A stretch of DNA of 20,000 bases from Bacteroidales bacterium (GCA_035389045.1 DAOORA010000019.1:48898-68897); one strand, 5' to 3'; positions 1 to 6,000 are shown, numbered from the stretch's first letter. Made by a program: the numbers.

Positions 1-3000
1 TGACCATAAAATTACCGGTATTAACGAAGTTCATATGGTCGAGGAAGGCGACATTACCTTTGTCGATTTTTATAAGTATTATGATAAGGCATTAAACTCA
101 AAAGCCTCTACCGTCATAATAAATAAAAAGGTAACACCACCGGATGGCAAAGCGCTAATAATTTCTGAGGATCCTTTCCGGGACTTCAACAAAATCGCCA
201 CCCGTTTCCGGAAGTTTGAACCCTGTGCGAATCCTATCAGCGATTCGGCGGAAATAGGGGAAGGCACAATTTTGCAGCCAGGCGTGTTTATCGGGAACCA
301 TGTTAAAATTGGTAAAAACTGCATTATTCATTCCAACGTCAGCATTTACGATTATTCCGTTATTGGCGACAATGTCATCATCCAGTCGAATGCGGTTATC
401 GGAGGAGATGCCTATTATTTCAAACGTCGCCCCGATCATTACGATAAAATGGAATCATGCGGAAGGACCATCATACATGACGACGTAGAGATAGGCGCTC
501 TGTGTGCTGTGGACAAGGGTGTATCCGGAGATACTATCGTTGGCCAGGGCACAAAGATCGACAACCATGTTCAGATCGGACATGATACACATATTGGTAA
601 AAATTGTCTCATTGGTGCACATTCAGCCATAGCAGGAGTTACTGTCATTGAAGATGATGTTTGTATATGGGCACAGGTTATGATAAATAAAGACATAACA
701 ATTGGTAAAGGAGCTGTGCTTCTTGCAACGTCCGCCGTAGACAAATCTATGGAAGGCGGTAAGGTTTATTTTGGATCCCCGGCCATTGAAGCACGAAAAA
801 AATGGCGTGAGATAATAGCTTTGAAAAAATTAGCTGAAAATTATAAGTGATTTTCAGCAAAAACTACCGTTTATTTTTCGTATTGTCGTTCAGAAACATT
901 GTAAAGCATGGGGGATAAAACATTTGATAAATATTCCAATATCCGCATAAATTACAAATTGTGGATGTCTTCTCAAACCGGTGATGCTATCATTGACGAT
1001 GATAAATGGAAAATGCTCATTTCTATACAGGAACTTGGTTCACTGATGGCAGCTGCCAATAATGAAAAGATAAGTTACCGCAAAGCCTGGGGTGATATTC
1101 GTAAAATGGAAGCTATACTTGGGTTCCGGCTGGTCGAAAAACACCGCGGGGGCAAGTCTGGTGGTATTACCATACTTACAAATGAGGGCGTCAGGCTTAT
1201 TAACTCGTATGTGAGATTTCGCGCTGAATTTCAGCAAAATGTTGATGAAACCATAAAAAAATTTAAAAAAGAGCTGAAACAAGTTTAGTTTCCCAATGAG
1301 GATTTTTGTGGCCATCGACGATACAGATAATTCCGAAAGCAAGGGTACGGGTTTCAGGGCCAGAGAACTGGCAGTCCTTATTCAAAAAAAAAATCTGGGA
1401 TTGCTTTATGGAGTAACACGCCACCAGCTTTTTGTACATGAGAAGATTCCATATACATCTCATAACAGTTCAGCATGTATAGTTTTGATTGCTGATGAAA
1501 AAAACCTTCGGAGCATTATTGATGTTTCAGCACAATATCTTATTGAAAATGCTGCCGATGGTTCTGATGCCGGATTATGTGTCTGTTCCGAAAAAAATAT
1601 CACGGCGGAACTGATCTCCTATGCAAAAAAAGCCAAAACAGAAGTCTTGACTATGGATACAGCCATAGAATTGGCTCAGAAACATCAGATTTTTCTGGAG
1701 GGTTTTACGGGAACCAGACAGGGCGTTATAGGATCATTAGCGGCGATCGGACTGCATGCGGAAGGCAACGACGGCCGTTTTCTGCAGGTAAGGGGTATGA
1801 GAGAACTTTTTGGTGTACACACGGTTAAATACATCCTTGAATACACCGGCGTGGAAAAAATCATGTCCACAGAAAACAAAATATTGTTTAATTTCGAAAA
1901 AATTTTTCTTACCGAATGGTGGCGGCCTGTGCTTAATAATAAACAGGCAGTACTATATGTTGAAACAAAAAATGCATGTAATTATGAATACAGGGTTATC
2001 TCAAAAGAGCATATCAAAAACATATCCGACTAAGGCTTTATTAACCTTACTTGAGGTGTTGCTCCTGATAAGTATAGGAGCCATCGGGGTTCTGATTCAC
2101 GCTAAATTCCGTTTTCCACTGAGATTGCCCGGGCACTGGGGATTGGTTTACATGGCGTTGATTTTTTCCGGGCGTTTGTTTTCAAAAAAACCTTATGCAT
2201 CAAGCCTGTCAAGCCTGGGCGCTGTTGCTATGTTATTACTGCCCCTTGGATTTAAAGACCCTTTTATGCCTGTCCTGTATATCTTTCCGGGGTTTATTAC
2301 GGACGTTTTCTATAATATCTTTAAAAACGGAAAAAAACAGATAATTCTTATTGCCCTTATTTCCGGAGTGGCTTATATGTCTATACCTTTGTCGCGTTTA
2401 TTTTTAACTTTGTTTACAGGAGTCATATATGGATCTTTCAGTACCGGATATATTTATCCTTTCATTATGCATTTTTTGTTCGGTGCATGTGGCGGCCTGA
2501 CCGGTCTTGGGATATACTCCGTCATTAGGAAAATTCTTAAACGATTATAATTAATGATAAACCAATCGTTTTTTTTCAAATTAGAGATACTCGTTTTCAT
2601 TGTTGTTTTTTTCTCTTCATGTACCAAAAAAGATACAGACCCGCCTGTTATTACATTTGATGCTTCTGGCGGGCTGGTTTTCAAAGACACGGTATTTCCG
2701 GCCGGAACAAACTTCAAGGTGAGCCTTATTGCCGAAATGGGAGGGTCAAACATTACCAATTTTGTCATCAAAAATTATCACGACGGACAGGTCACCGATT
2801 ATTTTGATACAGGCGTGAATAGCGAAACTATTAATATTACAAAGATACTGACCAAAAATGTTTTTGATACAGAAAAGTGGACTTTTATGGTCATCGATAA
2901 AAATGGTAAAAATGCGTCTGTTTCATTTAATGTATATCGGGATACAAGCGCTGGATATCAATTGGTGAAAGTTTTTCCGGGCGTGATTCTTGGTGCACAG

Positions 3001-6000
3001 AAAAACCCTGCAAAAGGAAGCTTTATGAGCCTGAAAAGTGGCAACACATGGTTTCAGCCTGATGCATTCAACATCCAGGATTCAATAGAATTGCTGTATT
3101 ATTTTGACTCAACCGGCGATGCCAATACTATTGCTTCTGCCGGTGCTAACATTGCCACGTTTATTTACCCTGGAAGTACAAGCCCTTTATACTGGTCAAT
3201 CCGGCATGAAACCCGCTTTTATAAGACTGCATATTCAAATGTTGATTTTAATAATGTACAAAACGACAGCCTGTTGCTTGTTGCTTATGATGAAATCAAT
3301 GGTAAGCGTAAGGCCAAAAATCTTGCCGCCGGCGATGTGTATTCATTTAAGACAGCTCATGCACGGTACGGTATGTTTTTAGTGGAACAGGTTCTTGGCG
3401 CCGACTCCGGAATGGTGCAATTCACCATAAAAATCCAGAAATGATGAAAAAAATTATTGTTTTTAGCATCATTGTGTTGTGGATTATTCAGGTATCTGCC
3501 CAGGGTAAAATAAGCGGTCTTGTAATGGATGAACAGACCGGAAATATACTCCCGGTTGCTACCGTAAAAATCCTTGAGTTAAATATGGTGACTACCTCAG
3601 ATAAAGAAGGCGCTTATGTATTTAAATATATCCAACCAGGGAAATATCATCTCGCCTTCACCTATGTGGGCTATAAAAACGATACCGTTCAGGTCACCAT
3701 GGGGAAAAAAAGTGACCGATATATTATTACAAAACTTACTAAGGCGGTTATCGATATCTCTGAGGTGACTGTCATTGCATCAAGAACCGAAAAAGGGTTC
3801 CGGGTTCCTGCAAGTATGGATGTGATCACCAAAAAACAGTTGCAGGAGTTGCCTGTTGTTTCTGTGGACGATGCATTAGTTTTAGTTTCCGGATTGAATG
3901 CTTCAAGAAATTATGGGATTTATAATAAAACAGGTGATGTAACCTTGCGCGGGCTTAACCGCAACATTTACAGCCTGATACTGCTCGATGGCGTGCCTTA
4001 CAGCCTTTTCGACGGCAGCGCCAACCTGTGGAATAAACTGTATACCGAAAAAATTGATGACATCCAAATCGTAAAAGGGGCAAATTCGGCCTTGTATGGT
4101 AGCAATGCCATGTCAGGTGTAATTTGCATAAATACATACAAACCCGAAAAATCATTTGAAGCCAGGGCTAAGGTTTTTTTCGGGACTTATAATACGCAGG
4201 GCGGGAATCTTGTTGTTGGTGGCAACAGATCCAAAAATGACAGAGGGTTTTACTGGAGTGTCAATGGTTTTTACAGGAAAAGCGGAGGCTATATTATGGC
4301 GCCTGATTCGCTCAGAACACCTTATGATGTGAAAACCTACGTGATGGAATACAACGCATTGGCAAAAACCGGTTATCAGTTTGGTAAAGGTCATAACATC
4401 GAAGTTGAATATGAGTACTCATCCGATAAACGCGGTACCGGTAGTAAATTTTTCGAAGAACAGGGAAGTTATAACCATTACAGAACTCACTTTACCAGAT
4501 TATCATACAATCGTGTGCATGACAACCACGAGATTCATGCCAATGTTTTTTTTAAAAAGGAAGGGTATATAAAACAAAATGAATCCATCAAGAAAAACAC
4601 CGGATTGTACACATTTTACAATACGGACACCGATACACATGACGAAGGGCTTTGGTTCAGTTATACCACCAGGACAATAAAAAATAATGTGCTTACTGTT
4701 GGAACAGATGTTAAAAGCGGTGCTGTTTATTCAAATGATATTTATCATACTTCTGTTGATACCATTGAAAATAATGGGAAAATGGATTTTTTCGGCGTTT
4801 TTATTCAGGACCAGTTATCCCTGCTGAAAGACAAATTTGTGATTTTGGCCGCACTGCGTGCCGATCTGGTACACTTCTACGGAGGGATTTTCCATATATA
4901 TTCACCAACGCTTGCTACATCTTTTTTGTATGATTACCAGGGAGATTTTAAAGCAAAATCGTGGTTTGCATTGAGTCCGAAAGCAGGGTTTAAATATATT
5001 TTTAACGAAAACTTTAATATCTATGCGTTGTATTCCTGGGGTTTCAGGCCGCCACAGATCAACGACCTTTCGCGAACCGGAGATGTAAACAAAGGTTTCA
5101 AACTTGCCAATCCCGGCCTGAAACCTGAACGTATTCAGAGTGTGGAACTGGGTGCAGGATTACGTCCCGCAAAATGGTTGCTGATTCAGCCCATAGTGTT
5201 TTATTCAAAAGGTATAGATTTTCAGTATTTTGTTGCAACTGGCGATTCGGTATATACTTCGGGGGTGAATATGAAACCTGTCATAAAAAGACAAAATGTC
5301 GGAAGAGTTAATATCGCAGGATTTGAACTTAAAACCAGTATCAGTTTTACAAAAAACATGAAACTAACAACTTGTTATTCCTATAATTATTCGGTTATCG
5401 GAAAATACCTGCCGGGCACGGTTGTTACAACCGATCTCACGGGCAGGGACCTGATCGAAGTTCCCAGAAACCTTTTCAGTGGCATTTATACCTGGAATAA
5501 CAGAATTATAACGGCAACTCTTACAGCTAAGTTCATTGATAAAGAATGGGTCGACGATGAAAATACTATCAGACTTGACTCGTATTGGACTTTCGATGCC
5601 AGGATACAGCGTATGTTTTATAACAAAATTAATTTTGCGCTGACCTGTCAGAATATTTTAAACAAACGCTTTGTGGACAGCAAGGGCTACCTTTCGCCAG
5701 GAAGATACTTTTTGTTTGAATTGTCTTTCAACTGGTAAGGAGTACATTCCAATCAATCATTTTTCAAATTCTTATATTTATTTTTCCTTATATTAATTAA
5801 TGAGTTTTTATATGAAAATTGTCTATTTTTTATTAATTTTGCACTACAAATAACAAGAAGTAGTATATGAATTTCGATATTATTATAATAGGTTCAGGAC
5901 CGGGTGGTTATGTGGCTGGCATAAGAGCGTCGCAATTAGGTTTTTCCGTTGCTATGGTTGAACAGGCCGAGGTAGGCGGTATATGTCTAAATTGGGGCTG

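Follow-up and report, generated by a model that had tools for sequence, protein, structure and literature searches.

Layout of the operon

The window, by which we mean the whole 20,000-nucleotide stretch of a Bacteroidales genome that was analysed, carries an operon with the following features:

908..1288, + strand: ModE-N-type winged-helix regulator, 126 residues (NCBIfam, Pfam)
1296..2033, + strand: stand-alone protein with the fold of the TiaS kinase domain (TCKD), 245 residues (sequence, profile and structure matches)
1984..2550, + strand: membrane protein with a predicted ECF S-component fold, 188 residues (AlphaFold2 model and structure matches)
1984..2033, + strand: dual-coding overlap of 50 nt between the 3′ end of the TCKD gene and the 5′ end of the membrane-protein gene (+1 frame; ORF reading)
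2554..3444, + strand: predicted lipoprotein, 296 residues (signal peptide ending FFSSC)
3441..5738, + strand: TonB-dependent outer-membrane transporter, 765 residues (Pfam)

The reading frames lie where the preliminary description had placed them, including the ModE-type regulator and the lipoprotein on the flanks of the TCKD/membrane-protein pair. New relative to that description is that the operon runs on into the TonB-dependent transporter gene (3441-5738), which shares 4 nt with the lipoprotein gene. The length of the membrane protein is counted from a conserved ATG, the open frame itself beginning at 1810. Its overlap with the TCKD gene, earlier given as a conserved 47 nt, comes to 50 nt when the stop codon is included. 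The two genes touch in 67 of the 80 loci in which the ORF caller retained the TCKD frame; in 47 of 67 related loci the overlap is again exactly 50 nt, and in 63 of 67 it is 41-59 nt.

For comparison, we used 168 related loci, 89 in set 1 and 79 in set 2. Orthologues of the lipoprotein follow the membrane-protein gene in 49 of the 89 set-1 loci. The lipoprotein itself has no Pfam match at E ≤ 0.01 (SH3DP gives 14.8 bits, E 0.022, against a cut-off of 25) and no PDB sequence match at E ≤ 1. The TonB-dependent transporter exceeds the Pfam cut-offs for Plug (72.9 bits) and TonB_dep_Rec_b-barrel (113.3 bits) and starts with a CarboxypepD_reg-like domain (CarbopepD_reg_2, 63.3 bits); its orthologues are present in 56/89 set-1 and 28/79 set-2 loci.

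The TiaS-like protein and its membrane partner

TiaS is the archaeal tRNA(Ile2) 2-agmatinylcytidine synthetase (3amt, 4rvz, 5xob). The 245-residue protein had been described as a stand-alone homologue of its kinase domain without OB and zinc-ribbon domains, and Foldseek, VIA-align, a PDB sequence search and domain scans agree on this. The TCKD core spans residues ~1-158 and is followed by a beta-rich C-terminal domain (~160-245); no further Pfam domain was found. Pfam TiaS_TCKD (PF22641) again scores just below its cut-off (26.3 versus 27 bits), while precomputed annotation of a protein collection assigns PF22641.3 to the identical protein and to many but not all relatives. A. fulgidus TiaS (3au7, 4rvz, 3amt) is matched at E 7e-9 over residues 1-157 in the PDB sequence search, with the IDDTD motif in register, as is G-T-G; 3u02, judging by its title, is a fragment of P. 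furiosus TiaS and not an independent family. The AlphaFold2 model (pLDDT 96.2, pTM 0.92) has nine best Foldseek matches that are all TiaS (E 2.7e-11 to 9e-7, rmsd 2.4 Å over 156-157 columns), and among 48,161 chains VIA-align superposes 3amt_A with Z 23.0 and an rmsd of 1.7 Å over 153 residues. The protein is no full member of the methanogenesis marker protein 11 family (TIGR03280), which gives 52.6 bits against a cut-off of 255.8 and only over profile positions 134-285 of 292.

The family is large, with 2937 clusters at E ≤ 1e-3, the best 120 of which are 239-251 residues long; the window's genome has a single copy. D8, D9, D11 and T18 had been called invariant in the family. Strictly they are not, yet they are nearly so: together with G17 and G19 they are conserved in at least 90% of 43 aligned sequences. 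T10, R42, H43, N57, G143, G146 and G160 are invariant in the same alignment, and all these positions are invariant in a 12-sequence subset. Other conserved residues distinguish the family from the aligned TiaS sequences, namely R42 H43 Q44, S55 H56 N57 S58, two cysteines (C61 and C95) and G157-R161, as does the different C-terminal domain. Two relatives among the homologues listed are labelled 'ABC transporter substrate-binding protein', a label for which Pfam and NCBIfam scans returned no explanatory model.

Could the protein nevertheless be an RNA-modifying enzyme or RNA kinase functionally related to TiaS? It shares the fold and the nucleotide-site motif. However, the tRNA-binding OB and zinc-ribbon domains are missing, and NCBIfam TiaS (NF040849) scores just 43.2 bits against a cut-off of 600, with residues 1-158 covering only profile positions 1-157 of 422. 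Moreover, unlike archaeal TiaS, this bacterial protein is encoded with importers under molybdenum/tungsten (Mo/W) regulators and riboswitches, and no RNA-metabolism genes recur in the 168 neighbourhoods. As earlier proposed, the genome encodes bacterial TilS elsewhere (N-domain TIGR02432, 188.2 bits versus a cut-off of 93.6), and AUA decoding is therefore not the job of the TCKD-like protein. An RNA-directed role thus appears extremely improbable. Here we see in the protein no tRNA enzyme; rather, the family occurs widely in gene clusters that would take up tungsten or molybdenum for enzyme cofactors.

The partner of this protein was already known as a polytopic membrane protein whose gene overlaps the TCKD gene; it has six long predicted helices, and the overlap is indeed conserved in relatives. 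What is new is its predicted identity as an ECF S-component-like protein, for which the evidence is structural. With its AlphaFold2 model (pLDDT 89.6) as query, the 15 best of 48,161 chains in VIA-align are all S components (Z 14.2 to 8.7, 144-172 residues aligned), headed by 5edl (rmsd 3.5 Å over 164 residues), and the first unrelated chain follows at Z 7.9. Foldseek also ranks 5edl first (E 0.02), and an atlas structure match leads to a PF09819 cluster (TM 0.78). No Pfam or NCBIfam model matches at E ≤ 1, and hence none of the described S-component families, PF09819 included, although a distant relative attains 20.4 bits with PF09819 (cut-off 25.2). The membrane protein thus has the six-helix fold of YkoE (5edl), ThiT, RibU, BioY and BtuM (8ovv), but differs from these S components in lacking a Pfam match and in being paired with a TCKD-fold protein. 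EcfT (PF02361) has no match in the window's genome, which is 96.3% complete, and the S-component-like protein therefore works without an ECF module here. BtuM is likewise a solitary S component. By contrast, in 10-11 set-2 loci relatives of the S-component-like gene adjoin EcfT and a double ATPase (EcfA-A′).

Regulation and gene neighbourhoods

The regulator scores 78.2 bits with NCBIfam ModE_repress (TIGR00637) over residues 29-114, below the cut-off of 98.5, and 30 bits with Pfam HTH_1, above the cut-off of 26.6. Unlike ModE, it lacks the C-terminal di-Mop/TOBE molybdate-binding domains, covering only positions 18-103 of 263 in NF007957. A ModE-like gene precedes the TCKD gene in 30/89 set-1 loci and is found in 1/79 set-2 loci. 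Associated with ModE-like genes is a 24-bp palindrome, CGATATG-N10-CATATCG, which occurs in 27 of 88 set-1 loci, its sites lying before the regulator gene (13), at the junction of the membrane-protein and lipoprotein genes, or before genes for aldehyde:ferredoxin oxidoreductase (AOR; 3).

Elsewhere the control is of a different kind. TCKD-like loci of Chloroflexota have regulators that combine HTH and PBP_like domains, and the Moco/tungsten riboswitch (RF01055) was detected in 10 of the 16 related loci scanned with Rfam. Our own covariance model gave 32 matches in 20/79 set-2 loci. Judged by coordinates, fewer than 250 nt separate the riboswitch from the TCKD gene downstream of it in 11 loci, and in eight it heads a gene string of type II ABC importer and TCKD genes. 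Both riboswitch alignments inspected lack the P3 stem; Regulski et al. (2008) connect the P3-less variant with the tungsten cofactor. TCKD-like genes are thus governed by three unrelated control systems (ModE-like, HTH-PBP_like and riboswitch) and belong to Mo/W cofactor regulons in several phyla. In the window, no riboswitch was found within positions 1-6200 at E ≤ 0.1 or with our own model, and a search for the palindrome that allowed up to three mismatches found none near the operon. What connects the window with Mo/W is therefore its ModE-like gene, along with orthology.

A regulator without Mop/TOBE domains, encoded 8 nt ahead of the TCKD gene, raises the question of whether the TCKD-like protein could be a sensor, which would bind ATP and a metal or cofactor and either gate importers in the manner of PII or act as the metal-sensing partner of the regulator. 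The many unrelated importer types that accompany the family would fit a general regulator. The TCKD core is ferredoxin-like in fold, and Foldseek pairs it weakly with PII/GlnK (E 8e-4 to 1e-2), although these matches span only ~100 residues at a query-normalised TM of 0.25-0.29. However, ModE-like genes are confined to the minority of loci given above, the Chloroflexota regulators have a PBP_like sensing domain of their own, and riboswitch-controlled loci require no protein sensor. The motif, nearly invariant and catalytic in appearance, speaks rather for turnover. We therefore regard a sensory role as unlikely.

Importers dominate the neighbourhoods. At least one importer part lies within 8 kb of the TCKD gene in 79/89 set-1 and 61/79 set-2 loci, the kinds being TupA/TupB (TupABC), WtpA, MOT1-type MFS, MolBC-like type II ABC (FecCD with Peripla_BP_2), and EcfA-A′/EcfT with an S component, in addition to TonB-dependent transporters. 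Independent Mo/W genes (MoeA, MoaA, MoaE, MogA, MobA, AOR, Oxidored_molyb and molybdenum-storage-protein homologues) are found within 8 kb in 48/89 set-1 loci, or 49/89 if a storage-protein homologue masked by the ORF caller in locus L007 is counted, and in 38/79 set-2 loci; about half of the related loci have none. A close homologue of the beta subunit of MosA/MosB from Azotobacter vinelandii (2ogx_B, E 1e-71), absent from the window, is encoded beside the TCKD gene in 21/79 set-2 and 3-4 set-1 loci. There is one such gene in each of L007 and L008, which were read in detail, and cluster counts for set 2 give 20 genes in 20 loci. Molybdenum storage needs ATP, and a functional link between the storage-protein homologue and the TCKD protein is our conjecture.

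TCKD-like loci thus have regulators (a ModE-like N-domain, RF01055) and neighbours (TupA/B, WtpA, a FecCD-type importer, MoeA, MoaA) in common with known Mo/W systems: ModABC/ModE, TupABC, WtpABC, MolBC-A and the Moco/tungsten riboswitch. However, TCKD-fold proteins, S components and TonB-dependent transporters are not known as parts of any of these systems. MolBC-A is described as a type II molybdate importer. Our literature search found no S component for molybdate or tungstate and no paper on a TCKD-like protein in tungsten/molybdenum uptake clusters.

Cofactor salvage, enzyme maturation or metal uptake

TonB-dependent transporters, ECF S components and type II ABC importers, all three of which accompany the family, usually carry organic cofactors, vitamins among them, or chelates, and the cargo may accordingly be something other than a free oxyanion. 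The presence of TupA genes together with ECF and TonB-dependent systems in loci of Geobacter-type genomes hints at two different cargoes. One could therefore imagine salvage, with a pterin entering through the TonB-dependent transporter and then the S component (or a type II ABC importer). This pterin might be molybdopterin, cPMP or something formed when Moco or tungsten cofactor breaks down, and the TCKD-like enzyme would phosphorylate, pyrophosphorylate or adenylylate it for re-use. The cargo of every solved S component that matches the membrane protein is an organic cofactor or Co/Ni, shut-off of salvage by a Moco/tungsten-cofactor riboswitch would be logical, and the longest enzyme alignments after TiaS are with pterin pyrophosphokinases (HPPK 1cbk, Z 6.8 over 114 residues; 3mcm, Z 6.9 over 108), albeit below Z 8, in the range that VIA-align calls common arrangements. 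On the other hand, in loci such as L123, L148, L167 and L175 the immediate neighbours of the TCKD gene are storage-protein homologues and WtpA or TupA, and no further importer is close by, which points to an oxyanion. Carriers also have de novo genes, with MoaC in the window's genome and MoaA in 7 loci. Overall, salvage seems to us rather improbable.

The phyletic pattern, too, speaks for an operon that serves tungsten or molybdenum acquisition. The TCKD-like family is present in 33 of 201 Bacteroidales genomes and AOR in 86; all 33 carriers have AOR, compared to 53 of 168 non-carriers (Fisher 9e-15, the relatives not being independent). In Anaerolineae, where AOR is found in 20/20 carriers and 117/131 non-carriers, co-occurrence is uninformative. 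Alternatively, the TCKD-like protein might serve not uptake but maturation, as a metal insertion or chaperone step for the AOR-type tungsten bis-pterin cofactor. AOR genes share the palindrome in the three loci noted above, and in 7 loci AOR is found upstream together with MoaD/MoeB-like genes. Yet the family is missing from 53 of the 86 Bacteroidales genomes that have AOR, and the TCKD gene, translationally coupled to that of a membrane protein, adjoins importer genes much more frequently than AOR, making such a role quite improbable.

In our best reading, the TCKD-like protein is the cytoplasmic, ATP-using part of tungstate/molybdate acquisition and acts behind importers. For the operon at 908-5738 as a whole, we see about an even chance that it acquires tungsten or, less likely, molybdenum for pterin cofactors. 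The ModE-N-type repressor would control the operon, the surface lipoprotein and the TonB-dependent transporter would move a metal species across the outer membrane, and the solitary S-component-like protein would move it across the inner membrane. The coupled TCKD-fold protein would then capture or activate the arriving species in the cytoplasm at the expense of ATP, after which the species could go on to storage, as the storage-protein homologues in relatives suggest, or to molybdopterin insertion by MoeA. Speaking for this reading, the nucleotide-site motif (IDDTD with G17-T18-G19) is retained in at least 90% of the 43 aligned sequences. What we observe directly are the homologies, the operon, the conserved pairing of TCKD and S-component-like genes and their place in Mo/W cofactor regulons of several phyla; which way transport runs, which metal species is carried, the use of ATP and the capture or activation step are inferred. 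The window's genome encodes MoaC, two AOR proteins and one FDH-like protein, which fits such a role. A search for ModA in this genome found none; a WtpA-like gene is present, and the operon therefore need not be the sole uptake route.

Loci with a complete ECF module or ABC importer have no need of the TCKD protein as an energy source for transport. Our guess at the chemistry of this protein comes from its fold: it might be a new kind of ATP-dependent enzyme that traps or activates tungstate or molybdate leaving a solitary S component, for example through a Thr18 phospho-enzyme or as adenylyl- or phospho-tungstate. We put this forward as an unlikely idea. If it is true, chemistry would take the place of an ABC ATPase in driving uptake, with the product passed to storage or MoeA, and an oxyanion-activating TCKD-fold enzyme would represent a tungsten-selective step upstream of cofactor assembly.

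The TCKD protein and its membrane partner

Our results give good support to the view that the TCKD protein, a stand-alone homolog of the TiaS kinase domain, and its S-component-like membrane partner are members of tungsten/molybdenum cofactor regulons and work together with importers. In the window, both are encoded in a nearly gapless string of five plus-strand genes downstream of an lpxD-like gene:

35-850, + strand, lpxD-like gene, precedes the operon
908-1288, + strand, winged-helix protein, 126 aa
1296-2033, + strand, TCKD protein, 245 aa
1984-2550, + strand, membrane protein, 188 aa, starting at a conserved ATG
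2554-3444, + strand, lipoprotein, 296 aa
3441-5738, + strand, TonB-dependent transporter, 765 aa

The lipoprotein has no PDB sequence match and no Pfam family. The genes past 5867 (lipoamide-dehydrogenase-like, asparagine synthase, polysaccharide synthesis and export, UvrA, LOG-family) do not belong to the cluster. Among them, positions 9173-15310 form a surface-polysaccharide block with glycosyltransferases, a Wza-like exporter, a Wzc-like tyrosine kinase, RmlC and a WecA-like protein; both this block and the SLT transglycosylase, UvrA and LOG-family genes that come after it are ordinary. Parts of the operon are matched at ≥99% by contigs from three activated-sludge RNA libraries, which does not amount to proof of transcription. 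One such contig runs from the end of the lpxD-like gene across the regulator gene into the first part of TCKD; positions 1535-2469 are uncovered in all three runs, which carries no weight either way.

The homology to the TiaS kinase domain, proposed in the preliminary description, stands: the protein scores 26.3 bits with Pfam TiaS_TCKD (cut-off 27), a PDB sequence search retrieves A. fulgidus TiaS (E 7e-9) with the IDDTD motif aligned, and TiaS entries take the first nine places in Foldseek. We likewise found neither an OB nor a zinc-ribbon domain in the protein, a single copy of its gene in the genome, and TilS encoded elsewhere in it, the first and last of these as described before. The AlphaFold2 model, built from a 43-sequence alignment (pLDDT 96.2), superimposes on 3amt_A with Z 23.0 and an rmsd of 1.7 Å over 153 residues in an exhaustive VIA-align comparison, where the best unrelated chain reaches Z 7.8. 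The NCBIfam TiaS model scores 43.2 bits across residues 1-158, but is outscored by methanogenesis marker 11, with 52.6 bits on its C-terminal half; our search for literature on the latter protein returned none. Conservation in the family goes beyond the motifs it has in common with TiaS: R42-H43-Q44, S55-H56-N57-S58, C61, C95 and G157-N-D-G-R161 are also kept, and TiaS has different residues there in the pairwise alignment. The roles of D8, D9, D11 and T18 in TiaS were reportedly described in the TiaS papers of 2011. A 2026 survey places TiaS among PPi-releasing enzymes and in a cyclase-like ECOD class, and gives extremophile archaea as the only organisms that have it (PMC13397572). RNA modification remains a rival reading of the family's role. 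The Atlas structure search linked the C-terminal domain (residues 160-245) to no family: its matches, at TM 0.76-0.79 by query, were all to unnamed clusters of actinobacterial proteins, of which one is auto-named 'Universal stress protein'; VIA-align rows barely cover this part.

The 188-residue membrane protein matches no Pfam or NCBIfam family, but its model (pLDDT 89.6) has nothing other than ECF S components at the top of its matches: they make up the 15 best of 48,161 chains, headed by YkoE (5edl, Z 14.2) and including ThiT, RibU, BioY, PanT, FolT, BtuM, CbiM and NikM, after which scores fall to Z 7.9. Foldseek and Atlas give the same match more weakly. No EcfT was found in the window's genome (96.3% complete); in Desulfuromonadia relatives, the S-component-like gene lies directly downstream of genes for a double ECF ATPase and EcfT. 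The start codon of the membrane-protein gene is located inside the TCKD gene, and this overlap is 50 nt long in 47 of 67 Bacteroidota and Chloroflexota loci (30-68% protein identity) and 41-59 nt in 63 of them.

Spread of the family and its gene neighborhoods

In each of two possibly overlapping scans of 185,579 species-level genomes, the family was confirmed in at least about 590; it comprises 839 clusters at 50% identity. Loci from species-representative genomes were drawn from these relatives into two sets. The first, for which a 12-sequence alignment served in the search, contains 89 loci, mainly from Bacteroidota, Chloroflexota and Proteobacteria (L001 was dropped, being on the same contig as L021), and the second contains 79, mainly from Desulfobacterota and Bacillota (L100 was dropped as identical to L007). 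Genes were called as crude ORFs, clustered by BLASTP and named via Pfam and NCBIfam; many loci are clipped at contig ends.

In Bacteroidota the order is TCKD, S component, lipoprotein and TonB-dependent transporter, optionally headed by the ModE-like regulator. These clusters often continue with a T9SS-sorted protein, MoeA and MoaA, and upstream there is often AOR, the tungsten-type aldehyde:ferredoxin oxidoreductase, with MoaD/MoeB-like genes. The Chloroflexota order is an HTH-PBP_like regulator, a small lipoprotein (cluster c10, no PDB sequence match or Pfam family), TCKD, S component, TupA, TupB and TupC. In Desulfobacterota and Bacillota, the genes next to TCKD encode a FecCD permease together with an ATPase and a Peripla_BP_2 protein (24-25 loci), a molybdenum-storage-protein homolog (21 loci; PDB 2ogx_B, E 1e-71), TonB-dependent transporters (28), ECF modules (10-11), TupA (11), MOT1-type transporters (8) and WtpA (7). 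Counted out to 8 kb, independent molybdenum/tungsten genes are present in 48 of the 89 set-1 loci and 38 of the 79 set-2 loci (raw counts).

Several smaller proteins recur at these loci. A ~282-residue protein that ends in a T9SS sorting domain is encoded downstream of the TonB-dependent transporter (L039:5643-6491 and 21 more Bacteroidota loci; absent from the window); once secreted, it might capture the cargo that the transporter takes up. Where that transporter is absent, a lipoprotein of 140-170 residues with a conserved C-terminal domain (EGP.L.DVL..AGV...ILDF.N.G) is encoded directly upstream of TCKD (L067:7436-7924 and 11 further loci from Chloroflexota, Planctomycetota and Bacillota; no family, no PDB match). 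A conserved basic protein of ~75 residues (MAGKIFYRER...PRFRVVAV...) always adjoins the storage-protein homolog, usually between its gene and TCKD (L125:5200-5433 and 12 further set-2 loci; no Pfam family). Nine loci, including L127:8737-8946 and L166:8778-8990, have downstream of TCKD an acidic four-cysteine mini-protein of ~70 residues (C...DDEDE...SCxNCxYRRWT...F.C; no Pfam family). Its motif, possibly a metal site, is also fused to the C-termini of some TCKD proteins (P0164, P0218, P0247).

Our search of longer proteins for fused TCKD forms yielded only P0312 (1053 aa, from an 8-kb metagenome contig), in which HTH_1, a TCKD-like part (38% identity), Plug and barrel are joined; gene calls run together are a likelier source of this record than a true fusion. 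An Anaerolineae genome with an intact copy has a second one in three pieces with one TGA (G201:C4:37008-37632), probably a pseudogene.

Regulation and tungsten/molybdenum genes of the carriers

Three unrelated regulatory mechanisms point the same way, toward molybdenum/tungsten. First, a 24-bp palindrome, CGATATG-N10-CATATCG, occurs with at most one mismatch in 27 of 88 set-1 loci (examples among L002-L096 are L033:7595-7618, L059:4552-4575 and L004:7303-7326). Sites lie upstream of the ModE-like gene (13) and of AOR genes (3), at the junction before the lipoprotein/transporter genes and in a divergent P5C-dehydrogenase/Ppnp promoter. The palindrome, which resembles the E. coli ModE operator, is a candidate binding site for the ModE-like regulators that lack Mop domains. 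No strict site was found near the window operon at up to three mismatches, and the window's own subclade is without it; the loose pattern ATATG-N8-13-CATAT matches the genome 75 times (a control pattern, 42 times), with the operon not among the listed sites, and does not discriminate. Second, the Chloroflexota loci have HTH regulators with a PBP_like domain. Third, an Rfam scan of 16 loci revealed RF01055 Moco/tungsten riboswitches in 10. Five of these were used to build a covariance model, which gave 32 matches in 20 of the 79 set-2 loci, and none in the window or set 1. By coordinates, the riboswitch lies 49-223 nt upstream of the TCKD start in eleven loci, and in eight Bacillota-type loci it heads a surface-protein/FecCD/ATPase/binding-protein/TCKD string. 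The P3 hairpin is absent from both riboswitch alignments inspected. Such P3-less variants track tungsten-cofactor metabolism in 17 of 19 organisms according to Regulski et al. 2008 (PMC2408646). A sensor role for the family also remains as a rival.

The phyletic pattern was compared with that of AOR in two groups. AOR is encoded in 86 of the 201 Bacteroidales genomes: in all 33 that carry the family and in 53 of the 168 that do not, although relatives are not independent. In Anaerolineae all 20 carriers have AOR, but so do 137 of 151 genomes overall, and the test is therefore uninformative. AOR maturation remains among the rivals. The window's genome encodes MoaC, two AORs, an FDH-like protein with an in-frame TGA and a WtpA-like protein; ModA was not found in it. 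The 909-aa frame of a molybdopterin-oxidoreductase gene at G000:C4:39884-41164 (locus L013) also contains a single in-frame TGA; this gene possibly encodes a selenocysteine formate dehydrogenase.

A proposed role in the acquisition of tungsten or molybdenum

The preliminary description had left the function open. We favor tungsten as the metal because of the P3-less riboswitches, the TupA and WtpA neighbors, the AOR linkage and the shared operator. Since importers of very different kinds, and a storage protein as well, all have the TCKD protein as their constant partner, this protein would be cytoplasmic and act behind transport, where, we infer, it may capture or activate the incoming cargo with ATP. 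Pterin salvage remains a further rival to acquisition of tungsten or molybdenum.

Our literature search, which covered neither subscription journals nor supplements, so that an earlier mention is possible, found no description of the TCKD family, a molybdenum/tungsten S component or a TonB-dependent tungsten route. Queries on ECF transport of molybdate or tungstate returned nothing relevant, those on TiaS-like proteins or TiaS homologs nothing on this family, and those on tungsten and TonB-dependent transport no TCKD-linked system. For a Syntrophomonas operon, Regulski et al. mention no more than 'other genes of unknown function' (PMC2408646), and PMC13197769 concerns MoeA1/MobB/FdhD, not the TCKD family.

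How tungsten is acquired at trace levels and separated from molybdenum is an open question. To our knowledge, the players known so far in tungsten supply are three ABC systems, ModE and MoeA paralogs. Our analysis adds a conserved, unstudied protein pair inside molybdenum/tungsten regulons, a proposed TonB-dependent outer-membrane route, a new family of ECF S-component-like proteins and, in bacteria, a kinase fold that the 2026 survey still restricts to extremophile archaea (PMC13397572). Strains of Geomonas, Desulfogranum, Desulfoprunum and Phosphitispora are among the cultured carriers in which the acquisition hypothesis can be put to a direct test. There is interest in tungsten enzymes (AOR, W-FDH) for CO2 reduction and acid-to-aldehyde chemistry, and knowing what limits tungsten supply is therefore also of practical value.
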